Virus genome (UHGV): UHGV-0070365
DNA: 39,408 bases
From: a virus
Strand: one strand, 5' to 3'
In this document: piece by piece, positions 2,972 to 39,358 of the stretch
How the letters are laid out: the number at the start of each line of letters is the position of its first letter
Numbering within the stretch: the stretch's first letter is position 1
Translations under genes and position numbers: made by a program
The notes under the pieces: generated by a model
Database searches by the model: none
Seen by the model: the letters and a program-made list of their open reading frames with translations, nothing else
Told to the model about the DNA's origin: nothing

Positions 2972-3135
2972 TGCTTGCCTCCTTTACGCCACATCGCATT
3001 CAGATATTTGTTTTGATTTACTGATGGAAAAGAATTTCTCTTTAGCAATTCCTCTCTCGATGGCATTGGCTTTACGCGTTGGCGAATAATCATTTCTGCC
3101 GGAAGAATGCCGGGATTGTATGCAAGTCCTCTCAT
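2968..3135 (-). CDS. Hypothetical small protein (55 aa)
   Basis: ATG overlaps stop of upstream ORF (ATGA at 3132-3135); not in supplied ORF track because <60 aa. Confidence 0.35.
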
Positions 3136-3413
3136 GATTTACTCTCCACGAACTGGTCAATAGCCATGCTAAGTGACACACCTAAAGTATCGATATGCTG
3201 CTGAATATCCTGTAGCATCTGAGCCTGAGATAACAGGATTTCACGGTTGCATAATTCTTTAACCAGATGCTCAAACTTGCTGTAATAACCGATACGGCTT
3301 AGTGTTTCTTTCCCTGCATTATCACCTTCTTTGATAATTCCTCTTTCACTAAGAATCAGGTCGTGTTTTGTTCCGGTAATAACATATTTGCCTAGGTCTA
3401 TGTTTAGCTTCAT
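3132..3413 (-). CDS. Hypothetical protein (93 aa)
   Basis: [24 protein letters not shown]... in leftward operon. Confidence 0.5.
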
Positions 3414-3429
3414 TGTTAATTACTCCATG

Positions 3430-3744
3430 TTAATTTATTCGTATGCCTGCTCTTTCTTCATCGAGTTTTTTTAGCTTGTATCTCATAGCTCTTACTGAAT
3501 AAATTGAGCGGCAGGTTGCAATTGCTATTTCTTCTGCGGAGAACTTACCGAAAAGTGATACTTCGGCTCTTGTCCAGCGTCTTCCACGAAGTCGGCTAAC
3601 AATGTCAGCGCCAATCCTTGTTGCTTTCGCCATAACTGCTTTTTCAGTCCTTTCCAGTTTTTCAGCAATAACTTCAACTGGCATTGTCGCCGATACTTCG
3701 CGCAAGAAATCGACTTCCCATTTCTCCCATGGAGTCTTTTTCAT
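3430..3744 (-). CDS. Hypothetical protein (104 aa)
   Basis: ORF MKKTPWEKWEVDFLREV... in leftward operon. Confidence 0.5.
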   Translation of the reverse strand: MKKTPWEKWEVDFLREVSATMPVEVIAEKLERTEKAVMAKATRIGADIVSRLRGRRWTRAEVSLFGKFSAEEIAIATCRSIYSVRAMRYKLKKLDEERAGIRIN

Positions 3745-3755
3745 AGGCGATACCG

Positions 3756-4244
3756 TTATTTGATAAGAAGTGAAGGTTTCCCAACCTTGAGTTGAGCGCC
3801 TGGGATATTTATTCCTGCTTTTAGTTGGTGCTTGATTGCCAACTTGTCGGCTTTAATTGTCGTTTCAAACTCAACGTATTCAGGAGGAAGGGCGCTTGAG
3901 TCGATGATTTCTACAGTTTCTGACGGTTTGCGGATTGTTACCTGGTGAATACCTGCTCGAATCTTTTTCTTGCCAACCATTTCAAGCGATGACGCTATAT
4001 ATGATTTGATGCTGTCAATCTTATTTTGAATTACTGCGGCTCGCTCATTCAGCGACTTTGCCTCTTCCTTGAGGCGTTCAGCATAACCAGATTCATTTTT
4101 AATGACGGAAAGAAGTTGCTCTATTTTATCGGTAAATTCTCCTTCCATGCCTTCTATTGTGTCAGCAATCATCTCTGGTTCTAAATCTGAATCCATCAAT
4201 TTTGCGTATTCATTGGCAATTTCATACAGTTTGCTCACTGGCAA
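3756..4244 (-). CDS. Siphovirus Gp157-like protein (162 aa)
   Basis: MPVSKLYEIANEYAKL... coiled-coil protein immediately downstream of recT, typical Gp157 family arrangement. Confidence 0.55.
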   Translation of the reverse strand: MPVSKLYEIANEYAKLMDSDLEPEMIADTIEGMEGEFTDKIEQLLSVIKNESGYAERLKEEAKSLNERAAVIQNKIDSIKSYIASSLEMVGKKKIRAGIHQVTIRKPSETVEIIDSSALPPEYVEFETTIKADKLAIKHQLKAGINIPGAQLKVGKPSLLIK

Positions 4245-5124
4245 CCTCCAGTTTCGCTTTGCATTCTATGTAAATGGCTTGTACGTTCTGCTGCAATTTC
4301 ATTCCAGATGTCAGGCGATATGCTTCTGCAAAATATCGCTTCAAATCATCCATGTTTTCTGCCTGAGCCATTTCATCACAAAGAAGTTGTGCTTTTTCCA
4401 TAATTTCCTGCTGGCGTTTCCGTTCATCTTCGCGGATATCTTCCTCTGATTTGTGCGGCATAACTGGTTCCTGATGCATGCCTTCATCTTCGTTAAGCAG
4501 GTGAATGGCATTATCCAGTCGCTGGGCTTTAGGCCAGTATTTGCTGGCGCGTTTAACTATGGTTTTACGCGCCATCTCTTCCCAGAATGTCTTCCACGGT
4601 CCATTCTTTGCCTTGCTCGTTGCTTCCACAGCTTTAATTTCTGCCAGACTCATTTCTTCAGTCAGGTAGTCACCATCTGCTGTTTTAACCGTGCAATAAC
4701 CACCAACAATAGAACCTCGCTCACCAAATGCGTTGTATTTGTGGGTTGGTGCTGAATCAAGGCCGTTTGATTCATAGGTGTCGTTTGAGTACACCAGTTT
4801 GCATTGCCCCCACTTAATTGAGCCTGTCGATTGCGCAAGGTGAAGTAATCCCATGTAACTGATATCAAGGCACACCATGCCGTCGCGAGGAACCAGATAA
4901 GCCAGTTTGCTGGCCGGGTTTAAGGTGATGCCGATCGCCGCAACATTGATGATGGCGTTCTGTGCGCTGGTTGGGTTTGCCAGTGCTGTTTTAGCCAGGT
5001 AATCATTTTTCTGGAAATACTGAATTGCAAACTGGCTTTCCTTAGCCCATGTCACCGTCTGTTCAGTCAATGCTCCGCAGAATAACTGCTCTTGCTGTTT
5101 AACGAATTCAACGATATTGCTCAT
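4222..5124 (-). CDS. recT: RecT-family single-strand annealing recombinase (300 aa)
   Basis: Family-typical motifs (…AAIGITLNP…, …KYWPK…), acidic C-terminal tail. Confidence 0.85.
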   Translation of the reverse strand: MSNIVEFVKQQEQLFCGALTEQTVTWAKESQFAIQYFQKNDYLAKTALANPTSAQNAIINVAAIGITLNPASKLAYLVPRDGMVCLDISYMGLLHLAQSTGSIKWGQCKLVYSNDTYESNGLDSAPTHKYNAFGERGSIVGGYCTVKTADGDYLTEEMSLAEIKAVEATSKAKNGPWKTFWEEMARKTIVKRASKYWPKAQRLDNAIHLLNEDEGMHQEPVMPHKSEEDIREDERKRQQEIMEKAQLLCDEMAQAENMDDLKRYFAEAYRLTSGMKLQQNVQAIYIECKAKLEVASEQTV

Positions 5125-5432
5125 GCAGCTTCTCCATAAATATGTCTGCGTTTGAATATTGCGAAGGCATATTCAGCCTTAACTCTTTCGGTTATTGCAT
5201 CCCAGAACCATTCAGCGGCTTTTTCCTGATAGTTACAGTCATCATCTTCCAGCCAGTCGATAGCGTCCTTAGTGTGTTCATCTGGTTTATATGAGCGAAG
5301 CATTTCGCTTATTGGGTCGCAACGTTTGCAGAGACGATCAACTTCACTGTTGATTCGTTCGTAATCTTCATCGGTAAAACTTGCGATGATTTGCGATATT
5401 TCACGCTTATCATTCAGAGTCAGAATCATCAT
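5121..5432 (-). CDS. Hypothetical protein (103 aa), ATGA-coupled to recT
   Basis: Stop overlaps recT start codon. Confidence 0.5.
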   Translation of the reverse strand: MMILTLNDKREISQIIASFTDEDYERINSEVDRLCKRCDPISEMLRSYKPDEHTKDAIDWLEDDDCNYQEKAAEWFWDAITERVKAEYAFAIFKRRHIYGEAA

Positions 5433-5517
5433 CTTTCTCCTGTTCTTTGTGCTGATTGAGCATTTCTTTCATCTGACGAATGAATTCTTCGTCTGACCAT
5501 GTATCCGCAATGCTCAT
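5410..5517 (-). CDS. Hypothetical micro-protein (35 aa)
   Basis: ATG overlaps stop of upstream 54-aa ORF (ATGA); acidic C-terminus. Confidence 0.3.
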   Translation of the reverse strand: MSIADTWSDEEFIRQMKEMLNQHKEQEKDDDSDSE

Positions 5518-5678
5518 TGCTTAACGACCTTAATCAGTTGAGTTACCTCAATGATGTCCTCGCATAAATCCGAGTACTGAAATGGGCCGCAGTTGTGAGA
5601 GTTAGTGCGTCGGGCGAAAGCCATTCTTCTAAGCTCTTTCAGGGCTTCTTCCAGTTCCTCGTAAGTTGGTTTTTTCAT
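5514..5678 (-). CDS. Hypothetical small protein (54 aa), in Kil position
   Basis: ATG overlaps cIII-like stop (ATGA); MKKPTYEELEEALKELRR... Confidence 0.4.
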   Translation of the reverse strand: MKKPTYEELEEALKELRRMAFARRTNSHNCGPFQYSDLCEDIIEVTQLIKVVKQ

Positions 5679-5845
5679 GGCTGTACCTTTTGATTCAGAA
5701 ACTCAACAAGACGATCCAGCAAGCTCTTAACGCGAGGTTGTTTAAAGTCTGCTCCGGTTAAAATGTTTTTTCGTGAATGCTGCACCGATAAAATCGGGTT
5801 GAAAGGGCGAACCGATGCCGCCCCTGCAATAGCGAACTGTTGCAT
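5675..5845 (-). CDS. cIII: CIII-like protease inhibitor (56 aa)
   Basis: MQQFAIAGAASV... resembles lambda CIII N-terminus (MQYAIAG...); GGAG SD 7 nt upstream. Confidence 0.55.
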   Translation of the reverse strand: MQQFAIAGAASVRPFNPILSVQHSRKNILTGADFKQPRVKSLLDRLVEFLNQKVQP

Positions 5846-5911
5846 AGGATGCTCCTTCTGTTTGATTGCATAACGAAAACGCCTCGAGTGAAGCGTTATT
5901 GGTATGCATAT

Positions 5912-5935
5912 AAAAAAGCCCTCACACTGGAGGGC
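5912..5935 (-). terminator. Intrinsic terminator (GCCCTC-N6-GAGGGC hairpin plus T6 on minus strand)
   Basis: Perfect 6-bp stem followed by A6 on plus strand, between ral and cIII. Confidence 0.6.
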
Positions 5936-6071
5936 AAAGAAGATTTCCAATAATCAGAACAAGTCGGCTCCTGTTTAGTTACGAGCGACATTGCTCCGTG
6001 TATTCACTCGTTGGAATGAATACACAGTGCAGTGTTTATTCTGTTGTTTATGCCAAAAATAAAGGCCACCA

Positions 6072-6272
6072 TCAGGCAGCCTTGTTGTTATGTTTACCAA
6101 GTTCTCTGGCAATCATTGCCGTCGTTCGTATTGCCCATTTATCGACATATTTCCCATCTTCCATTACAGGAAACATTTCTTCAGGCTTAACCATGCATTC
6201 CGATTGCAGCTTGCATCCATTGCATCGCTTGAATTGTCCACACCATTGATTTGTATCAATAGTCGTAGTCAT
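6072..6272 (-). CDS. ral: Restriction alleviation protein Ral (66 aa)
   Basis: MTTTIDTNQWCGQFKRCNGCKLQSECMVKPEEMFPVMEDGKYVDKWAIRTTAMIARELGK... matches lambda Ral as recalled. Confidence 0.88.
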   Translation of the reverse strand: MTTTIDTNQWCGQFKRCNGCKLQSECMVKPEEMFPVMEDGKYVDKWAIRTTAMIARELGKHNNKAA

Positions 6273-6397
6273 ACGGATAGTCCTGGTATTGTTCCATCAC
6301 ATCCTGAGGATGCTCTTCGAACTCTTCAAATTCTTCTTCCATATCTCACCTCAAATAAGTGGTTTGCCGCGAAAAAGTAAAACAAGGATACTCACTT

Positions 6398-6670
6398 CTA
6401 TTTGTCATCGTGTAAGCGACGCAGGTTATTAACTCGCGGCCAGTAATATTTTGGCTTGGCACGAGATCCGGGTCTTGGACCTACACAAACTATATAGCTC
6501 TCTTCTTTCCTCGGAAGGCCAGGCGCATCTAGCAGACGACCTAGTTCGAATTTTTTTACGTTGACACCAGGAGGAATCACCTCGACGATAAACCCGATTT
6601 TTACCTTCGTTACACCGTTTGATGAGCTTGACCATTTAACTTCATCGTTCAATTTGAACTTCATCATTAA
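6398..6670 (-). CDS. Hypothetical protein (about 90 aa) immediately downstream of N
   Basis: ORF MMKFKLNDEVKWSSSSNGVTKVKIGF...; start placed at internal Met after N stop. Confidence 0.45.
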   Translation of the reverse strand, partial: LMMKFKLNDEVKWSSSSNGVTKVKIGFIVEVIPPGVNVKKFELGRLLDAPGLPRKEESYIVCVGPRPGSRAKPKYYWPRVNNLRRLHDDK

Positions 6671-6672
6671 CC

Positions 6673-7005
6673 TCAATCGTAATAAGCTGGAATTGATTTT
6701 CCGCGTTGCTTCTGGCGGCCTGAGCAAGTCACACCCATTTCACTGCGTGGCTTGCTGTACCATGTGCGCTGATTCTTGCGCTCAATACGCTGCAGGTTGC
6801 TTTCAATCTGTTCGTGGTATTCAGCCAGCACCGTAAGGTCTATCGGATTCAGTGCGCTTTCTACTCGTGATTTCGGTTTGCGATTCAGCGAGAGAATAGG
6901 GCGGTTAACTGGTTTTGCGCTTACCCCAACCAACAGGGGATTTGCTGCTTTCCATTGAGCCTGTTTCTCTGCGCGACGTTCGCGGCGGCGTGTTTGTGCA
7001 TCCAT
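6673..7005 (-). CDS. N: Antitermination protein N (110 aa)
   Basis: MDAQTRRRERRAEKQAQWKAANPLLVGVSAKPVNRPILSLNRKPKSRVESALNPIDLTVLAEYHEQIESNLQRIERKNQRTWYSKP...; arginine-rich N-terminus, lambda N-like. Confidence 0.9.
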   Translation of the reverse strand: MDAQTRRRERRAEKQAQWKAANPLLVGVSAKPVNRPILSLNRKPKSRVESALNPIDLTVLAEYHEQIESNLQRIERKNQRTWYSKPRSEMGVTCSGRQKQRGKSIPAYYD

Positions 7006-7162
7006 CTGGATTCTCCTGTCAGTTAGCTTTGGTTGTGTGTGGGAGTCGTAGTCCTGAACGAAAACACCCCGCAATGGCACATTGGCAGCTAATCCGGATT
7101 CGCACTTCCGGCCAATGCTTCGTTTCGTATCACACACACCAAAGCTTTCTGCTTTGAATGCT

Positions 7163-7193
7163 GCCCTTCTTCAGGGCTTAATTTTTAAGAGCG
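7163..7193 (-). promoter_or_regulatory. nutL: nutL (boxB hairpin GCCCTGAAGAAGGGC and boxA CGCTCTTA on minus strand)
   Basis: Exact boxA and boxB motifs read on minus strand upstream of N. Confidence 0.88.
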
Positions 7194-7238
7194 TCACCTT
7201 CAATGGTGGTCAGTGCGTCCTGCTGATGGCTTAAAATT

Positions 7239-7307
7239 ACAAGAAAGATTGTATGTTGTAAACAAGAAATATTGTAAAAAGGGGGCGTAAAAAACAAACT
7301 CCATTGT
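7239..7307 (-). promoter_or_regulatory. OL: pL/OL region with three 434-type operators ACAAGAAAGATTGT (7239-7252), ACAAGAAATATTGT (7262-7275), ACAAACTCCATTGT (7294-7307)
   Basis: Three 14-bp ACAA-N6-TTGT sites of the phage 434 repressor type. Confidence 0.85.
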
Positions 7308-7357
7308 TTTTAAACGGAAAATAGTTTGTTTTTTGGTTATCGAGATTGAGGTGGGGA

Positions 7358-8710
<1,353 letters not shown>

Positions 8711-29468: not shown

Positions 29469-30875
29469 ATGGCTACTTGGCAAGGAACAAACGGCGGATT
29501 GTTGGCTGGTATCGGCGGCGTCAACTCAAACGCTCCGAGCGTAAATGACATCGGCAATACGCTTCAGCTTATCAGGCAGAACAATGATATTGAGCGTTCA
29601 GGCGCTAACAATGTTGGGCTGACTGCTTTGCAAGGCCTTTCAGGTATTGCGGGGGTGTTTCAGCAGGAAAAGCAGGCTCAGCGGCAGAAAGAATTTCAGC
29701 AGGCATACGCTAATGCTTATGCGTCTGGTGATCGCGGTGCTTTGCGTCAGTTGGCTACTCAATATCCAGACCAGATTGAATCCGTTCGTAAAGGCATGGG
29801 ATTCATTGATGAAGACCAGCGCAATTCTATCGGCACCTTAGCGGCTGGCGCACGCCTTGCGGCCTCGTCTCCAGAAGCAATGCAATCATGGCTGCAAAAC
29901 AACGCCAATGAGCTGGCGCGCGTCGGTGTTGACCCTAATAACGTTGCTCAGATGTATCAGCAGAATCCTTCAGGATTTGGTGAGTTTGTTGATCACCTTG
30001 GGATGGCTGCTCTTGGTCCAATTGATTACTTCAATGTTCAGGACAAGATGGCTGGTCGTGAGATTGATCGCGGGAAACTTGCAGAGACAATCCGCAGCAA
30101 TCAGGCTGGAGAAGCACTTCAGGCGAGAGGGCAAAACCTTTCCTATCAGTCAGCAATGACTGGGCACAATATCGCAGCGCAACGCTTGGCTCTGGATCAG
30201 CAAGAGTTCGGGTTTAAGATGCAGCAAGCGCAGGAAAAGGCTCAGCAGTTGATTAGCGAAGCACCTAAGCTGTCAGTAAACATGGAAAAAGGCATCGAGA
30301 CGGCTGTAAACAATGCCACAGCATCATCAAACTCAGCCAATTCTATGAGTGCGCTTGCTCAACAGTTCAGAGCAGAAAAACCAACGACAGGTTTATTCGG
30401 TAACGCACAGAACATGTTCGCAAAACTTACCGGAAGCGATACGACATTGCGTGATTTGCGTATCCGCCAAAATGCCCTTGTTAACAGTCAGGTTCTTAAA
30501 TTCCTACCTCCCGGCCCCGCAACGGATAAAGACGTTGAGATCGTTCGGCAGGGTGCGCCAACTGACATGGATAACCCTGAGACGGTCGCAAGATGGCTTG
30601 ATGCGATGGCAAACCTTGAGCGACGAAATGCGCAGTTTAATGAGTTTAAAGCCGAGTGGATGAGCGCGAATGGCAATCCAGGACAATCGCGCAATGGCGG
30701 TCAGATATTGGGGTTGGATGTTAAAAAAGGTGAATCATTGGGGAGTGCCGTTAAGCGGTATATGTCAATGAATACTGACGCAGTGCCAGCACAAGATTCG
30801 ACACCTTCAGGAGAACCACGGAATCAGGTTGGATCATATACCTCAAAATCAGGCATTCAATTTACGGTGGAATGA
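29469..30875 (+). CDS. Ejection protein, P22 gp20-like (468 aa)
   Basis: Size and order match P22 gene 20. Confidence 0.7.
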
Positions 30876-32713
30876 TGAAAGTAACTGCAAACGGTAAGAC
30901 ATTTACCTTCCCTGATGGTACGAGCACGGAAGATATTGGGGCCGCCATTGATGAGTATTTTGCTGGTCAGGCTGTTCAGCAACAAACAGTTAATCAGGTC
31001 AATAATGAACCAGCACGGGAAGAACCATCATTGATGCAACAAGCTGGCGATTGGCTCACTGGTGGTCAAAGTGCAGGGCAAATTGCAGAACAGGCAGGTC
31101 GTGGTCTGGTAAACATACCATTTGACGTATTGCAGGGTGGTGCAAGTCTGATTAATGCAATCAGCCAGGGGCTTGGTGGCCCCAAGGTTTTGGATGATGT
31201 TTATCGTCCAGTAGACAGACCGACAGACCCTTATGCGCAAGCTGGAGAAACAATTGGCGGGTATTTAGTTCCAGGAGTTGGAACGGCAGGAAGCATGGCT
31301 ATTGGATCACTGGCAGAAGCCGCAAATCAGAAAGGCGATTTCGCACAAAATGCAGCTAAAAATGCCGGAGTTAACCTTGCCGCTCAGGGTGTTCTTTCCG
31401 CAGCAGCAAAGGGAATAGGGCGTGGAATAACGGCTATAAAAGGTGATATTGCGCCAGAAGTGGCGAAGAAAATTGCCACATCAGAATCGATGGGCGTGAC
31501 ACCAATGACATCTGATGTTATCCCGCCGAAAAATGCTTTCACTCGCGGACTTACTCAGGATGCCGAGGGGGCTTTGCTCGGGACAGGCTCAAAGAGAGCG
31601 GAGCAATATGCAACACGTAGTAAGCTGGTAAGCAATTATTTTGACCGTTTTGGTGAGTACAACCCTGATGATGTGGTGAAATCTCTGACCACCACGTTAA
31701 GGGGGCGGAAGGATGCCGCTGGCGCTGTTATCAATGACGTCACCAATAAAATGGGTAATGCCGCAGTTGATACCACAAATACCATGAATGCTCTGAATAC
31801 AGCGATCGCAAGACAGGAACGGCTTGGGACTTCAGCCAATCAAAGCCTGCTTACATCCTTGCGTAACCTACGTGAAGAATTAGCAAACCCTGCAACTGAT
31901 TTGGATGTTACGTTTGATCTCTTGCGTCAGCACAGAACAGCATTTAGATCTAATGTTCAGGGAGATGCTATGGTCTTCCCCAACCAGGCAAAAGCAGCTA
32001 CCAATATGGTAGAGAATGCAATGTCAAAAGACCTTCGTAACGCAGTTGCTAAAAACCTCGGTGCATCAGACGCAGCAAAATACCTTAAAGCAAATTCCGA
32101 TTATGCAAACGTTTATAATAAGGTGCTTAATAAAAACATTGCTAACAAGCTCAACAAGGCAAGCAGTGAAGCCAGTCCTGAACTTATAAATACCGTTGTA
32201 TTAAGCAGAAAACCATCTGACGTGAAACGAATCTGGAGCGCATTGGATGATAAAGGGAAAGATGCTATGCGTGCAGCTTACGTCAGCAAAATAGCGGAAA
32301 AGGCCGGTGACTCTCCAGCCAGGTTCATCACTGAAGTTAATAAGCTGAAATCTCAGTCGGGTGGTGAAATTTACAACACTATTTTTTCTGGAAAGCACAT
32401 GAAAGAGCTTGATGCTCTTCATGAAGTTCTACAGCAAACAGCAAGGTCAGACACCGCAAATGTAGTAACTCAGACGGGGCAATCACAAGCCAACAGGATA
32501 AGGACGATTGGCGCAACTGCGACTCTTGGAGTATCAATGGGGCTTGAGGCTGGCTTTGGTGCAATGATGCGTTTGTATGAGTCCAAAGCCGCAAGGAATA
32601 TGCTTCTTCGTCTAGCAAACACCAAGCCGGGAACACCAGCCTATGAAAGAGCGCTAAATAACGCTGCGAATGCCATCAGACCGCTGTTTGCTACTGAGGC
32701 AACACAGCAGTAA
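30872..32713 (+). CDS. Ejection protein, P22 gp16-like (613 aa)
   Basis: Size and order match P22 gene 16. Confidence 0.7.
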
Positions 32714-32737
32714 CGTATGGGAAATTGGATTCAATCG

Positions 32738-33127
32738 CTAACATTTTCTTTTTACTTTTCCAACAAAAGCTTTGGTTGAATCCATATTTCCATAACCGGA
32801 AATGGTTTTTGACATTAAAACTGTTCCAGTAGGATGTATTACCCATGAGTCGATAACGCGTTGAGTTTCGCCATTCGCGCCGATTCCTATGATGGAGTTT
32901 TTAGACAATGCTTTGTAAGCCATGCCGCCCGCATCTGTCCCAGAATATGTGATGCTGGCATCTTCACCGCTTGTCTTAATGATGAATGTTCCACTAAAAC
33001 CATCTTCTTCCGGATGGAAATTATTTCGTTCTGAATAGCTTATTCCGCGCATATCTCCAACGACCCAGCACTCTGCTGTAGCCCCAAAAGATATGAATAA
33101 GAACATAGCAGCAAGAAATTGCTTCAC
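32738..33127 (-). CDS. Secreted/periplasmic protein of unknown function (129 aa, GTG start), paralog of rex-position protein
   Basis: SD TAAGGAGGT upstream of GTG; signal peptide (M)KQFLAAMFLFISFGATA; mature N-terminus ECWVV like ECWIV of 7358-7762 product. Confidence 0.6.
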   Translation of the reverse strand: MKQFLAAMFLFISFGATAECWVVGDMRGISYSERNNFHPEEDGFSGTFIIKTSGEDASITYSGTDAGGMAYKALSKNSIIGIGANGETQRVIDSWVIHPTGTVLMSKTISGYGNMDSTKAFVGKVKRKC

Positions 33128-33191
33128 ACCAACCTCCTTAGTTTTGAGCAGAATACCAGATGATAATGTGTAGTTGGAGTAGCGCGGTTGT

Positions 33192-33283
33192 AATGCAAGC
33201 ATTTTGTTTTAGTTTTATGCTTGCTTGTATGTGTGTACAGTGTATATAATGCAAGCATACATCACAACAAAGGTGCTTGCATT
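33192..33283. promoter_or_regulatory. Divergent promoter region with four copies of TGCAAGCA/TGCTTGCA palindromic motif (33192-33203, 33217-33227, 33248-33259, 33273-33284) and TATAAT at 33245-33250
   Basis: Repeated imperfect 12-bp palindromes AATGC-NN-GCATT spaced about 24-32 bp. Confidence 0.5.
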
Positions 33284-34252
33284 ATGACTGAAAAGAAAAG
33301 TGGCGAAGGGAAAGCTAAGGGCGGGATCGCTCGCGCAAAGTCGCTGACTAAAGAGCAGCGTTCTGAAATAGCAAAGAAAGCAGCTGCTGCAAGATGGAAA
33401 AGTAAGATTCTCAGGGCAACTCATCGTGGTAACTTTTTAGATGATTTTGGCATTGATGCTGAATGTTATGTACTGGATGACGAGTCGAAAACTGTCGTTG
33501 TTACGAAAACTGGATTATCTCAGTTGCTAGGGATTGGTGAACATGCCAGGGATTTAGATCAACTGCTTGGCGCTCAGTATATGAGCAAATACCGAGATCT
33601 AGAATTGCAGCGAAAAATGGAAAATCCCTATAAATTTCAACTTACTTCGAAGTCTAAAACCGTTCATCAAGCGTTAGGTTATGACATTACAGCAATTGTT
33701 GATATTGGTAGGGCACTAATAGAAGCCAAAGATAATGACGATCTACCACAATCACGGTTAAAGGCAGCCGCCGCAGCACAGAGACTTATTAATGCCTCCG
33801 CTAAGGCGGGAATTAAGGGGGTTGCGTATGCGCTTGCTGGTTATCGTCCAGAAGTTCAGGCTGTCATTGACGAGTTCAAAGCGTTTGTTCGTGAAGAGGC
33901 TCGTCAATATGAAAAGGAATTTCCAGATGAGCTATACGAGGAGTGGTATCGACTGTACGGCCTGAATAGGCCAGAGAAAGGACGGCCTATTCGTTTTGGG
34001 CAGCTAACCAACATGCAGATATACACCCCGCTAGCAAAGAGTAAAGGTAAAATCCTTGAACAAATTAGAGCCAGCCGAGACGAGAACGGAAAACAATCTG
34101 ATAAGTTGCATCTGTTCCTTTCTGAAATTGGTGTCAAGGCTTTGCGTCAGCATATCGGTAAGCTTCTTGGTGTCGCAGCGATGAGTGAGACAAGAGAAGA
34201 ATACGAAAAAGGAATAGAAAAGGTTTTCGGAAGAATGAAACCAGAAATCTAA
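33284..34252 (+). CDS. Uncharacterised protein with basic putative DNA-binding N-terminus (322 aa)
   Basis: N-terminal KGGIARAKSLTKEQRSEIAKKAAAARWKS; no TM segments; lies in sieA/immI position. Confidence 0.55.
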   Translation: MTEKKSGEGKAKGGIARAKSLTKEQRSEIAKKAAAARWKSKILRATHRGNFLDDFGIDAECYVLDDESKTVVVTKTGLSQLLGIGEHARDLDQLLGAQYMSKYRDLELQRKMENPYKFQLTSKSKTVHQALGYDITAIVDIGRALIEAKDNDDLPQSRLKAAAAAQRLINASAKAGIKGVAYALAGYRPEVQAVIDEFKAFVREEARQYEKEFPDELYEEWYRLYGLNRPEKGRPIRFGQLTNMQIYTPLAKSKGKILEQIRASRDENGKQSDKLHLFLSEIGVKALRQHIGKLLGVAAMSETREEYEKGIEKVFGRMKPEI

Positions 34253-34260
34253 TTATGAAA

Positions 34261-34282
34261 CCCACCGTCAGGTGGGTTTTTT
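34261..34282. terminator. Bidirectional terminator hairpin (CCCACC-GTCA-GGTGGG then T6) shared by convergent genes
   Basis: Perfect 6-bp stem; mnt stop codon lies in loop. Confidence 0.7.
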
Positions 34283-34519
34283 GTACAAATCCTTCAGCGT
34301 ATCAAACACCATCTTCTTAACAAGTTCAGACTGCTCATCAGCGATGCGTTCCGCATCGTCTCGATAGCCTGAAATTTTGGATGGCTTTGATACAGCATCA
34401 GTCACTATCTGAACTAATTCTGAATTAAGAGAGCGGCCATTGGATTTGGCTCGCTGTTTTAGTTTTTCCTTTAATTCGTAAGGTAGCCGCAGATTAAATT
34501 GCGGGTCATCTCTTCCCAT
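34268..34519 (-). CDS. mnt: Mnt repressor, ribbon-helix-helix (83 aa)
   Basis: MGRDDPQFNLRLPYELKEKLKQRAKSNGRSLNSELVQIV...YRDDAERIADEQSELVKKMVFDTLKDLYKKPT, P22 Mnt-like. Confidence 0.85.
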   Translation of the reverse strand: MGRDDPQFNLRLPYELKEKLKQRAKSNGRSLNSELVQIVTDAVSKPSKISGYRDDAERIADEQSELVKKMVFDTLKDLYKKPT

Positions 34520-34582
34520 TCTTGATGCCTCACTTTTGTAAGTGGATCGGCATCATATGATCTACTGGTTATATCCACAATA

Positions 34583-34597
34583 AGACCACTGTGGTCT
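34583..34597. promoter_or_regulatory. Omnt: Mnt operator-like perfect palindrome AGACCAC-T-GTGGTCT
   Basis: 15-bp palindrome between mnt and tailspike start. Confidence 0.6.
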
Positions 34598-34654
34598 CAA
34601 TGACGCATTGCCGTAGCCATGCTGCGGTGATTCCTTGTATCTGGAGCAAATTAA

Positions 34655-36634
34655 ATGACAGACATTACAGCCAATGTGATCGTATCAATGCCATCGCAAC
34701 TCTTCACTATGGCGCGTTCTTTTAAAGCCGTAGCCAATGGCAAAATTTATATCGGAAAAATTGACACTGACCCGGTAAATCCTGAAAACCAGATTCAGGT
34801 TTATGTGGAGAACGAAGACGGTTCTCACGTCCCTGTTTCGCAACCAATCATCATTAACGCTGCTGGATATCCGGTATATAACGGACAGATTGCCAAGTTC
34901 GTAACTGTGCAAGGCCATTCTATGGCTGTTTATGATGCATACGGTGCTCAGCAGTTTTATTTTCCGAATGTTCTGAAGTACGATCCTGACAGATTGCGAC
35001 AGGATTTAGCGCTTCCAACAGGCGCTGAGCTTGTAGGCGTGCAACCACAAGGAAATCTTTCGCAAGTCATTCAGTTTGTATCTCCAGAGCAGTTTGGCGC
35101 CATCGGAGATGGTACGGTTCATCCATTATCTGAGCGTTATGCGACTCTTGCAGCAGCGCAGGCAGTATACCCATTCGTAACATCTCTGACGCAGACCATC
35201 GACTGGGCTGCATGCCAGTTGGCAGAAAACCTTAACAGGAAGGTTAGGCCCATTCATGTTGCCAAGTTTAAAAAATATCACCTTGGTGACAACTATCTCA
35301 AGTTGGGCCCATATTCTACATGGATTGCCCTACCGTTAAATGACTTCGTATGGGATACAGGATTTATCCGCAGCGTACCTACAGATTATTCCTCATACGC
35401 ATTTGGGCAGTTGTGCATTGTTAGAGTCGGTGACGCGTCAGAATTTACTGGTGATGGCGTTACCGGAAGCAATGTGCGAAATATTACCTTTAAGGGGTTT
35501 CAGCTTAGATGGGATGTGGCCAGACACACTCCTTCTAAGGGCGTTGGGACCATCTGCCTGCATATGAATAATGCCATGAAGATGAATCTTGATGTTTGCC
35601 TTTATGGCGGTGAGTTCGCTGCTTTCGGGTACTCATGCTGGGGCACTCAGGGTAGTATAAAAATAGACTCATGCCATAAGGGGATATATTGGGATGCCGT
35701 GAGTAAAACCCCGGAAAAATCCACAGAGGGAGGCAGCACAACGTCGCATAATATTGAATTACAAATCGACCATACGATTTTCCCTGTCTACCTTAGAAAT
35801 TGTAACTACGCTAAATTCCACGGCTGGTTCGAAGGAGCCTTGACGTCGATGGCTCACTATGATTACACAAACGAGACTGCAATGGGCATTACCCTTGATT
35901 CGTGTGACGGGGTAATTTTTGATATGGGAGTAGAGGCGTGGCAAGGAGCTTTACTGAATTGCATAGGTTCCGTTGAGGCTGAGTTTTCTTTTGCGATGCT
36001 TCCTAGTGAGATTCTACCATCGGGACTAGGTACGCAGGGGGTTGCGTATCGCGTAAGGTCGTTAATGTCTGCAACTGATGAGACGGCGATACCTAACGCT
36101 GATAGAAGTCTGTCTTATGTTAACGGATACAGCACCGTAACGATTAAGCACTGGCAGCCCGTTGTGAATCCATGGCCGACAGATGGAACAACGAAATATG
36201 TTACATCTGTTGACACAACAAGCAAAGTGACCTTCCAGGATTGCGGAGTAAACTTAGGCGGCGCTCCTGCACTCGGCGGCGGTGATGCTAGACTCAAGCT
36301 AGCACCAGCTAACTACGCTAATATAGAGGCTATAGGCGGGATGTACATAGAGCGCTATTTAAAGCCAAGCTCCTCATACGATTATGCAGGGAGATCTGTA
36401 TCTGTGCATAATTCGTGGCAGGGAGCTAAGATTGCTGCTGATGGCACTGTTACCATAACAGCTCCAGCAAACTTTAAAATAGTCGATTTTACGGCTATGG
36501 TAGGTGTCAGCACAAATGCTCAGCCATCCGGAGTTGGAATAAAATCCAGAAGCGATGCGTCTATAGTCCTACAAACTACAGCTAACGCGTCCTATGGTAT
36601 TAACTATAAATTGTGGGTTAAGCCAACATTGTAA
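34655..36634 (+). CDS. Tailspike protein: P22/Sf6-type N-terminal head-binding domain plus divergent receptor-binding domain (659 aa)
   Basis: N-terminus [59 protein letters not shown] matches P22 gp9 head-binding domain; remainder dissimilar. Confidence 0.85.
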
Positions 36635-36649
36635 AGGCCCTTACGGGCC

Positions 36650-38080
36650 TTATTTAAGCATTACATGAAAATGGTTGCCTGAGTGGATTATGAAGTAACG
36701 GCTATCCTTAAATACAGTAGTGTCGTTATTATTTTTCATTGATTCCATCTCTGCAAAAATTCCATAATGTTTCAGCATTATCATTCCTGACCAGTTATAC
36801 AAAGGCATTACCATCCACTTAAGGGAAGGGAATCTCTTAAATTCCATGTCAGTAGAGACGGCGGTAGATATCTGGCCAGAGATAAACACCTTTTTGCCAT
36901 CCAGTTTAGGTGGCAACGAAGATGCTATATCATAGAACACCTTATCTTCGAGCGAGCGCTGATGCTTACTTGCATTTCCATATGCAGACGAGTAAGACAA
37001 GGAGAACATTACAGGAATAATGCATGCGATAGTTGTTAGTCTTTTTGATGGCAACATTGATGCCAGATAGCCGATAAGCAGCATAAACCCCGGAACTCCC
37101 ATCATTACGCGAGGAGCAACCACAGTCTTATCTATAAATATAAATGGCCCAGCAATTGAGAACAGTGTCACTGCAATGCCCGAAGAAAACACAGCAAAAC
37201 CAATAATTTTTGATGTTAAAGAAAGCTCAGACTTTGCCACTCTGAAAGACAGAATTATCAAGCCAACAGTCGCAACTACAATAATCAGTACCCAAGCCAT
37301 GTAAAGCGAGTCATTCATGAGGCTTGATGCGATATTCCAGAATCTTTCAAAGTTGTAAAGCAGGCTTTTAGCCGGATCATCAGCTTTTAATACAAGATCT
37401 GAGTGAACATTCTTCGACAAGAAGAATGGGGTCACACCCTTCATGTAGATTATAATCCCAATAATTGCGCTGGCCGCTCTTTCGGCAGACATTCGCAATG
37501 CATCTGTTCCGCTTCCCCTACTGTAAAGTACGTAAGCTATTTCTATGGCGCACAAAGATAGGAACACATTTATTGTTGCTTGATAGAGACTCAAGGCAAG
37601 CACAAGGCATACAGCCCCAAATAGCACCCTAAACGCCAACTTCCATGATGCTGCCATTTTAGAGTAAGGTAAAACGGCAAGGAAAACTCCAAGCATCATG
37701 GGGAGGGAGTCAAAGTGATAAGAAAGATTTTGAAGGAAGAAAGGGCTTAATGAAAATAAAGAAAAAACTAATCCTGAAGCAATGCCGCGACTGATTGCAA
37801 ACCTGCAATAAAGAATGACTGACGAAGCACCAAGGAATGTGCCGGCAAGTATCAGTGATAATGGGAAAGAATCGACAACAAATCCAGATCCAAACCCAAG
37901 TGACATGACAACAACATCAGATAAAGGTCGGCCAAGCACGCCCCAATACGCTTCACCATTCGCAGCCCTAAGTATATCATCCTGATATAGAACGCCTGAA
38001 AGCAGGATTGGCAACACAAAGAGTGCTGTAATCAAGGAAATTACCCAACACCCGCTATCAAATTTATTCAACTTCAACAT
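36650..38080 (-). CDS. Serotype-specific O-antigen glucosyltransferase (GtrC-type, polytopic membrane protein, 476 aa)
   Basis: Multi-TM protein directly downstream of gtrB in a gtrA-gtrB-gtrX operon. Confidence 0.7.
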
Positions 38081-38999
38081 TTTTATTCCTTTGTTTTAGA
38101 ATAAATCTCGGGCGCTGCTTGGACTCAACATATATCCTGCCAATGTACTCACCAAGAACGCCAATGCCAATCAATTGAACCCCGCCAAGGAACAGAATAG
38201 AGACAAGCAGGGATGGATATCCACGTACAGCATTGCCGAAGGCCAGTGTGTCGATAATCATCCAAGCACCGTACAGAAACGCCACTCCAGCTACGAACAG
38301 GCCAATGTAAGTCCACATGCGCAACGGGAAAGTAGAGAAGCTTGTGATTCCCTCAAGTGCCAGGTTCCACAGTTTCCATCCATTAAATTTAGTACTGCCT
38401 GCCACTCGTTCTGCGCGTGCATACTCGACAACATCAGTGCGGCCGCCAACCCAACTCAGCACACCTTTCATAAAAAGGTTGCGCTCTGGCATAAGCTTAA
38501 TGTTTTCGACAACTTCACGGCTCATTAACCGGAAATCGCCGACATTCTCCTCGATCTTTGGGTTGCTTATTTTGTTGTGCAATTTATAAAACCACTCTGC
38601 CGTTTTGCGTTTCAGTCGTCCGTCAGTTGAGCGATCAGTTCGCTTAGCCAGCACCATATCAGAGCCTGCCTGCCACTTTTCGATGAGGTGGGGAATAACC
38701 TCAATCGGATCTTGCAGGTCAACATCAATTGGAATTACAGCATCTCCGGTTGCATGGTCTAGCCCTGCAAACAATGCTGGTTCTTTACCAAAGTTTCGTG
38801 TAAATGACAGCGGAACAACCAGCGGGTCTGAAACAGCCAGAGCATTAATAATTGACTCCGTAGCGTCTTTGCTTCCGTCATTTATGAAAACAATTTCCAC
38901 TTCATATGGCTTCAACTCTTTGAACTCACGTACCGTTTTATAAAAAATTGGTATCGCTTCTTCTTCATTGAAGACAGGAACTACAAGAGATATCTTCAT
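38064..38999 (-). CDS. gtrB: Bactoprenol glucosyltransferase GtrB (311 aa)
   Basis: GT2 family motifs (VVPVFNEEE, DxD), C-terminal TM helices. Confidence 0.9.
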
Positions 39000-39358
39000 T
39001 TCGCATCCCTAAAGACAATGAACTTTGAATAGACGAAACCGCACACCAGGCTGATGGCGGAGAAGGTGACGAGAGTGACAATTGGAGGAAGTGAACATCT
39101 ATCAGCAGCCCATCCAACAGTTGCACTCAGTGTTCCCATGAACCCGACATATAACATGTAGCGCATCGTTGTAGTTGATGCTTTGAATGTGAATTTTGCA
39201 TTCGCGAAGAAGCTAAAACTCACAGCCACAACAAAACCTGCGAAGTTTGCCAGAGCCTGATTGGTATGCGCGGCATAGATACATACACCAAAAACCACCC
39301 AGTGTATAAGGGTGTTCAGCACGCCAATAGAGGTGTACTTTGCAAATAGTTTTAACAT
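38996..39358 (-). CDS. gtrA: GtrA flippase (120 aa)
   Basis: [59 protein letters not shown]...; 4-TM GtrA family. Confidence 0.9.

Follow-up and report, generated by a model that had tools for sequence, protein, structure and literature searches.

The DNA analysed here, UHGV-0070365, has a length of 39,408 nucleotides (nt); it is referred to as the window, and all coordinates are window positions. The region of interest is the late and accessory part of an E. coli prophage of the P22-like (Lederbergvirus) type. By means of sequence analysis and comparative genomics, we characterized a gene coding for a basic protein of 322 amino acids (aa) from the P63C family, together with four copies of a 10-base-pair (bp) site that precede it. 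The gene is located between gp16 and mnt and is divergent from a gene for a 129-aa protein with a signal peptide. The initial annotation had likewise placed it between the ejection-protein genes and mnt, and had noted four sites upstream of the basic open reading frame (ORF), over a TATAAT and the start codon; both statements are confirmed by the sequence. The start coordinate given there, 33192, is not that of the gene: this position lies at the first copy of the motif, and the ATG of the gene is at 33284. The elements of the gene and of its upstream region are:

33193-33202, plus strand: candidate operator S1, ATGCAAGCAT, the most distal of the four; in homologous loci it is conserved at about -85 relative to the start codon
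33217-33226, minus strand: candidate operator S2, ATGCTTGCTT (reverse complement AAGCAAGCAT), which contains the putative -35
33221-33226, plus strand: putative -35 hexamer TTGCTT inside S2, 18 bp upstream of the -10
33245-33250, plus strand: putative -10 hexamer TATAAT, which shares its last 2 nt with S3
33249-33258, plus strand: candidate operator S3, ATGCAAGCAT, lying over the -10 and over the transcription start predicted at about 33257
33269-33273, plus strand: ribosome-binding site (RBS) AAAGG, abutting S4
33273-33282, minus strand: candidate operator S4, GTGCTTGCAT (reverse complement ATGCAAGCAC), between RBS and start codon
33284-34252, plus strand: coding sequence of the 322-aa P63C-family protein, from the ATG at 33284 to the stop codon (Pfam, PHROG, RefSeq)
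34257-34283, plus strand: Rho-independent terminator, AAACCCACC-GTCA-GGTGGGTTT followed by a T run, deduced from RNA folding and shared with the convergent mnt

The four sites alternate in orientation (forward, reverse, forward, reverse) and form two convergent pairs, S1/S2 and S3/S4. They had been described as copies of a palindrome; four copies are indeed present, but each 10-mer is only pseudo-palindromic (ATGC-AA-GCAT), and their orientation alternates. A perfect 12-nt inverted repeat, ATAATGCAAGCA/TGCTTGCATTAT (33246-33257 and 33274-33285), extends into the ATG, and the site region also holds a 12-nt direct repeat, TAATGCAAGCAT. The number of 8-mer copies in the whole window is unremarkable (3 observed, 3.5 expected); all of them fall inside 90 bp. 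Spans of 100 bp with at least three hits occurred in none of 300 dinucleotide-preserving shuffles of the window, and shuffling the AT-rich intergenic region (156 bp) 5000 times never reached the four GCAAGC/GCTTGC cores observed. Chance or an AT-rich artefact is ruled out by these shuffles and by the 6547 control windows described below; the clustering is far above chance, and the objection considered in the initial annotation, that the motif might be no more frequent than expected in AT-rich DNA, does not hold. A second copy of the paired site was not found elsewhere in the window. The only visible target is therefore the promoter of the P63C gene itself.

The arrangement is conserved. Loci encoding relatives of the protein (80 viral and 80 from genomes) were compared, and the DNA upstream of each start codon was read. 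Removal of redundancy left 131 upstream regions, and the protein identity of the homologues ranges from 42 to 100%. The forward-reverse-forward-reverse quadruple is present in 106 of these 131 regions, with core-to-core spacings of 22-25 bp for S1-S2 (mode 24), 30-33 bp for S2-S3 (mode 32), and 23-25 bp for S3-S4 (mode 24). The consensus of the sites is aTGCAAGCAT with a near-invariant GCAAGC core; the spacers are unconserved. The layout of the expression signals is conserved as well. A TA..AT hexamer directly 5' of the core characterizes S3 (T 0.82, A 0.84, A 0.88, T 0.95) and none of S1, S2, and S4. The S2 hexamer TTGCAT, TTGCTT, or TTGCAA is located 17-18 bp from the -10 in 93 of the 106 cassettes. 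A conserved GG/AGGAG (Shine-Dalgarno) stands directly 5' of S4, and in distant homologues S4 reads ATGCTTGCATG, the last three nt of which are the start codon. At least three cores were found in 103 of 127 upstream windows, compared to 0 of 6547 control windows from the same loci. The loci stem from Enterobacterales, Burkholderiales, Rhodanobacter, Alphaproteobacteria, Myxococcota, and Acidobacteriota, and further from Syntrophaceae, Oscillospiraceae, Heliobacteriaceae, and Abditibacteriaceae; Firmicutes are among the phyla, and the GC content of the loci ranges from 0.37 to 0.67.

Two loci, L032 and L077, contain deletion variants of the cassette with two sites left (upstream of position 4001). 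In both, a TTGACT hexamer is located directly before the remaining upstream site. Recombination between direct repeats, either S1 with S3 or S2 with S4, could account for the deletions.

The flanks of the cassette differ widely. In P22-like prophages, the upstream neighbour is gp16 or the divergent secreted gene; 22 viral loci, most of them closely related to that of the window, combine the latter with a P63C gene. Lambdoid prophages of Klebsiella and relatives have the gene downstream of a cI-like repressor gene (HTH_3 plus Peptidase_S24; HTH, helix-turn-helix), on the same strand and behind a terminator. In other loci, the end of a tRNA gene lies upstream. At least 43 of the fetched loci, almost all from genomes, have a gene for an IS1-family DDE transposase (~290 aa; IS, insertion sequence) as divergent neighbour; this arrangement is seen in Acidobacteriota, Proteobacteria, Myxococcota, and Firmicutes. 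In at least six loci (L089, L103 at 3035-5561, L114, L123, L144, and L150), from Acidobacteriota, Proteobacteria, and other phyla, an element of 2.5-2.95 kb is delimited by the terminal inverted repeats GGTAGTGxxTCAGTTTGAA and comprises a small ORF besides the genes for the transposase and the P63C protein; the divergent P63C gene of these IS1-family elements has the four-site cassette. As the same cassette occurs amid unrelated flanks, it goes with the gene and not with the neighbours: it belongs to the P63C gene rather than to the shared intergenic region or to the divergent secreted gene, and the 129-aa secreted gene is not part of it.

The association with IS elements raises the question whether the repeats are recombination or transposition sites, used by the IS1-family transposase or by a recombinase, and not operators. 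The gene is divergent to the transposase inside 2.5-2.95 kb elements in many phyla, and the deletions in L032 and L077 can be read as recombination of the repeats, for which, however, direct-repeat homology suffices. Moreover, the repeats are internal instead of terminal, their sequence is unrelated to the inverted repeats of the element, and they persist in prophages that possess neither transposase nor IS ends. Their fixed register with -35, -10, RBS, and ATG is what is predicted for a promoter-operator region. We therefore regard transposition sites as a very improbable explanation.

Two of the prophage locations are accessory slots. The interval between gp16 and mnt is the place where P22 carries sieA. 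In four loci from Klebsiella and related prophages (L082-L085, 4728-6969), an orthologue with 80% identity and its own cassette is located just downstream of the cI-like gene; some of these loci have a 102-aa ORF in between, the others nothing. Lambda carries rexAB in the slot behind cI; the position in L082-L085 is the classic lysogen-expressed accessory slot of lambdoid phages. The initial annotation had proposed a lysogen-expressed accessory module. The accessory slots found here agree with the second half of this proposal; expression in the lysogen is suggested by these positions.

The protein itself is basic, with an isoelectric point (pI) of 9.39 (10.6 for the N-terminal 42 aa), and contains no hydrophobic segment (maximum Kyte-Doolittle(19) score 1.01). 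Its aa 199-286 match the Pfam family P63C (PF10546; 52.7 bits at a cut-off of 26.1, E-value 6.8e-14, profile positions 3-92 of 93), and aa 6-321 match phrog_2384 (E-value 1.7e-104, profile positions 4-328 of 338). Among the aligned relatives, 66 of 67 also match P63C, and the RefSeq name for the identical gene is 'P63C domain-containing protein'. The protein, annotated initially as uncharacterised, is hence no orphan but a member of a named, though functionally uncharacterised, family. P63C is named after p63 of the Myxococcus phage Mx8; membership in P63C or PHROG 2384 conveys no function, as the family itself carries none. The family is large: searches in two protein libraries yielded 1682 and 1363 hits, the latter being cluster representatives at 50% identity. 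An AlphaFold2 model (predicted local distance difference test score, pLDDT, 84) consists of N-terminal helices 10-20 and 23-40, an alpha/beta domain, and an all-helical C-terminal half. The corresponding segments of the gene are:

33308-33397, plus strand (aa 9-38): N-terminal basic two-helix motif GKAKGGIARAKSLTKEQRSEIAKKAAAARW, the most conserved block of the family and the proposed operator-recognition module
33410-33733, plus strand (aa 43-150): central alpha/beta domain, weakly winged-helix/Bro-N-like, with a pLDDT of 94.6 when modelled alone
33878-34141, plus strand (aa 199-286): P63C domain, inside the all-helical C-terminal half (aa 156-315)

A Foldseek search of BFVD gave a match to Mx8 p63 (E-value 3.1e-4) and weak whole-chain similarity to KilA-N and Bro-N proteins (E-values 1e-2 to 3). 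No profile of Bro-N (PF02498) or KilA-N (PF04383) matches the protein, for which P63C is the sole Pfam hit at E <= 1, and no Xre-type domain (HTH_3 or HTH_31) was hit in Pfam. NCBIfam, PADLOC, and the PDB (searched with sequence and profile) contain no relative of the protein apart from a marginal match of its N-terminus to mycobacterial mIHF (E-value 0.088), which was rejected because a profile search with the motif alone failed to reproduce it. The N-terminal motif has no counterpart in Pfam, NCBIfam, or PDB; a single-sequence search with the motif alone returned 28 short proteins. Of the searches proposed in the initial annotation, those with profiles gave P63C and phrog_2384 as the sole hits, which rules out a structural or assembly protein. 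A known defence protein is likewise ruled out, as no PADLOC model matches.

The occurrence of the sites is linked to the N-terminal motif. Where a homologue possesses the central and P63C domains but not the motif, no core is present upstream (L157, L166, L169, L295, and L296). An acidobacterial subfamily in which the second helix is altered (...EIARAAIQARWE) shows another inverted repeat, TATACTTGCxCGGG / CxCGGGCAAGTATA, over the promoter, and variant sites are found in L097 and L151. Locus L230 (3509-4741) encodes a RhuM-family protein (PF13310, E-value 9.5e-65), the N-terminal basic motif of which is its sole similarity to the P63C protein of the window; ATGCAAGCAT-N11-ATGCTTGCAA is located upstream. 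Judged by its sequence, L230 is a case of domain shuffling that ties the motif to the putative operator. A mosaic is also seen in E. coli locus L086 (P0088), where the cassette and the first 34 aa are identical to those of the window gene and the identity drops to about 50% thereafter; another E. coli genome matches the window at 33128-33399 only. A scan of viral contigs for the pattern TGCAAGCA-N13-18-TGCTTGCA yielded 120 loci, 68 of which are beside P63C genes; L230 is one of the others, most of which look like chance matches within coding regions. Binding of DNA by the Lys/Arg/Ala-rich N-terminus, as initially suspected, fits the covariation of motif and sites and the RhuM case.

Two of these loci deserve a separate remark. 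In L296 (306-2076), the homologue without motif and sites lies directly behind an IS1595-family transposase gene with TAAGATG as stop/start, which suggests that its expression may be coupled to the transposase. The L086 locus (5516-7583) is part of a P22-like prophage that has a ClpP-like protease gene between the P63C gene and mnt.

It could be argued that the sites are operators of another protein, such as a global regulator of the host, Mnt, or a prophage repressor, which would control the P63C gene together with its divergent neighbour. Their location in a divergent intergenic region close to mnt would be in line with such a role. The cassette, however, is kept across phyla in the absence of mnt, of the secreted gene, and, in the IS elements, of any prophage; a factor acting in trans would need to be universal and to have retained an unchanged specificity. 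Furthermore, the sites vanish with loss of the motif of the P63C protein and change when the motif changes. To our knowledge, the site resembles no consensus of an enterobacterial regulator. Control by another protein is for these reasons improbable.

We therefore favour, with a probability of roughly 0.65, the reading that the locus is a self-contained, negatively autoregulated moron, which has its own promoter and terminator and encodes a protein that probably binds its own promoter. The gene combines a promoter cassette, which is predicted, with a terminator, lies between conserved modules, and is patchily present, as expected for a moron; an autoregulated cassette should show repeated sites that overlie its -35, -10, and start and are conserved together with the gene, as is the case here. 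The stem of the terminator has a folding energy of -16.2 kcal/mol (z = -4.1), and none of 200 shuffles was equally stable. The sigma-70 promoter would be made of the binding sites of the protein: S2 would provide the -35, S3 would overlap the -10 and the start, S4 would fill the interval between RBS and ATG, and S1 would lie one pair-spacing upstream. The N-terminal helical hairpin (aa ~9-40) is proposed to read the four ATGCAAGCAT sites, probably as an oligomer that extends over S1/S2 and S3/S4. Because S2 lies on the -35, S3 on the -10 and start, and S4 on the RBS-ATG interval, occupancy should give negative autoregulation. The bound protein would shut out RNA polymerase and, at S4, possibly affect elongation too. 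The outcome would be a low and constant level of the protein, independent of the regulatory circuit of the carrier element. The possible autoregulation mentioned in the initial annotation fits a four-site cassette that is conserved with its gene across phyla and in unrelated flanks.

Several observations weigh against this reading. The -35 TTGCTT fits the consensus at three of six positions, and the promoter scanner made no call here. A 2x2 test of motif versus sites with regular expressions gave an odds ratio of only 7 (p = 7e-4); this low value results from variant motifs being misclassified, and the clear cases given above were read individually by eye. Small stand-alone or HicB-like proteins with the motif occur in related IS elements that lack GCAAGCAT sites; the motif can thus occur without this operator. 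The operators could instead be read by the central winged-helix-like domain. The RhuM example argues otherwise, yet it stands alone, and RhuM contains an HTH of its own. The protein has no catalytic signature, and Y247 and G283 are the only invariant residues of the family alignment. Finally, some of the small motif proteins are labelled 'RNA-binding protein' by NCBI, and the distal pair of sites could activate instead of repress.

The last point corresponds to a positive or dual autoregulator, in which S1/S2 recruit RNA polymerase to the weak -35 and S3/S4 shut off the promoter at high concentration. The weak -35 is embedded in S2, one pair of sites lies upstream of and touches the -35, and the other pair covers the -10, the start, and the RBS; in addition, S2 is systematically degenerate (GCTTGCTT) in the enterobacterial copies. 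The data do not separate this model from simple repression. It is a possibility to which we assign a clearly smaller weight than to negative autoregulation, and it represents a refinement of the best explanation more than a true alternative.

The NCBI label bears on a further model, in which control is exerted at the level of RNA: hairpins formed by S1:S2 and S3:S4 would serve as attenuators or insulators, or translation would be repressed by binding of the basic motif to the mRNA leader at S4. S4 is indeed located inside the leader, and a transcript that originates upstream of 33246 can form an S3:S4 hairpin of -17.5 kcal/mol (z = -4.5), which hides the start codon. However, S1, S2, and most of S3 are located upstream of the predicted start, and RNA from this start is unstructured. 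The primary sequence is conserved across phyla, and not pairing alone; 37 of 37 core deviations affect one arm and break the pairing, and the number of compensatory changes is 0. A search of Rfam yielded no family, but sub-threshold microRNA-like hits that are caused by the long palindrome. As the main mode of control, an action on RNA appears unlikely. It may coexist with autoregulation as secondary insulation against read-through: in a transcript arriving from upstream, the S3:S4 hairpin would cover the start codon, which could shield the gene from foreign transcription.

The proposed circuit resembles that of controller (C) proteins of restriction-modification systems with their C-boxes and that of lambda CI at OR/PRM, which likewise have paired operators over their own -35/-10, feedback, and the form of a portable cassette. 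The likeness is one of circuit logic only, as C proteins and CI contain an Xre-type HTH and the P63C protein has no such domain. Furthermore, the cassette here has four alternating 10-bp sites, spaced 24/32/24, of which one covers the start codon, and the proposed regulator is fused to a large effector-like body. Morons such as those of HK97/HK022, lambda rexAB, and P22 sieA also possess their own promoter and terminator between functional modules. SieA is an inner-membrane protein. The P63C protein, in contrast, is soluble and free of membrane segments, is not homologous to SieA or Rex, and has no PADLOC match; it shares with them the slot only. Carriage as a passenger gene of IS1/IS1595 elements applies to relatives, whereas the copy in the window is a prophage gene: no IS inverted repeat or IS remnant was found around it, and no transposase is nearby. 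Bro-N and KilA-N domains with variable C-terminal domains are said to have been described by Iyer, Koonin and Aravind in 2002 as viral, domain-shuffled DNA-binding regulators.

Ten loci, among them L096 (4296-4592) and L109 (4968-5261), encode proteins of ~98 aa that are convergent to the P63C gene. Those of the L096 type carry the motif in the form GGxARAxxL..R..IAKKAAxxRW at the C-terminus, and their N-terminal half appears HicB-like by eye; no match exists in Pfam or NCBIfam. HicB antitoxins have a C-terminal DNA-binding domain, and it is at this place that the ~98-aa IS proteins have the basic motif. In contrast to HicB, no toxin partner was identified for them, and the window has no such small gene. 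These proteins could act at the same operators, either in competition or in partnership.

Since the visible regulon is the gene itself, whatever the central and P63C domains do as effectors must take place elsewhere. With low confidence, we suggest an activity directed at nucleic acids that benefits the carrier, for example interference with competing mobile DNA or control of an outside target. P63C proteins are common in prophages and genomes, as shown by the 1363 cluster representatives and by 85 complete E. coli genomes out of 5426 with a match (46 of them full-length), and the locus provides the family with a testable handle, namely a defined 10-bp operator, a promoter, and a candidate recognition module of 30 aa. 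Tentatively, and with somewhat less than even odds, the hairpin of ~30 aa (GGxARAxxL(S/T)xExRxxIAxKAAxARW) can be regarded as a new portable module for sequence-specific DNA binding that forms, together with the four-operator promoter, a host-independent cassette spread by IS1/IS1595-family transposons and prophages over at least eight phyla, on P63C and RhuM bodies. These bodies may be unrecognised effectors of mobile-element competition or anti-phage defence. If the proposal is true, a new small DNA-binding motif is defined, the same level of accessory-gene expression from Enterobacteria to Acidobacteriota is explained, a compact autoregulated cassette becomes available for synthetic biology, and P63C and RhuM bodies in prophage "defence" slots and IS elements become candidates for functions in mobile-element conflicts. 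Should the protein turn out not to bind, another explanation would have to be found for why the four sites are so strictly conserved.

In the literature searched, we found no paper on the function or regulation of P63C, its N-terminal motif, the four-site cassette, or carriage by IS elements; one paper notes that a P63C protein connects phages of Alpha- and Gammaproteobacteria in a gene-sharing network. As far as this literature shows, the conserved four-operator promoter, the linkage of sites and motif, the portability across effector bodies, and P63C genes as IS1/IS1595 passengers are new.

The P63C gene is surrounded by the following genes:

29469-30875: gp20
30872-32713: gp16
32738-33127, minus strand: gene for the 129-aa signal-peptide protein, with a GTG start behind the RBS AAGGAGG; phrog_2651, of unknown function
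34268-34519, minus strand: mnt
34655-36634: tailspike gene with a P22 head-binding domain
36650-39358, minus strand: gtrCBA-like operon, consisting of a gtrC-like gene (Glucos_trans_II, 476 aa) and genes for 311 aa and 120 aa

For the divergent 129-aa gene, no convincing -35/-10 was found by eye or by the promoter scanner. Most of the 76 phage records that match 32700-34650 match mnt only. vB_EcoP-611R6 is the only one to match the gene region, and none covers at least 80% of this query. The immI region of the window is reduced: the tailspike gene comes straight after mnt, with neither arc nor ant between them, and the order in vB_EcoP-611R6, the closest phage, is mnt-arc-orf-ant-tailspike. 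As the window contains no ant, Mnt would be left without an ant promoter as its target. The 311-aa and 120-aa genes near the window end appear gtrB-like and gtrA-like when read by eye, and together with the gtrC-like gene they form a putative operon for O-antigen glucosylation (serotype conversion).

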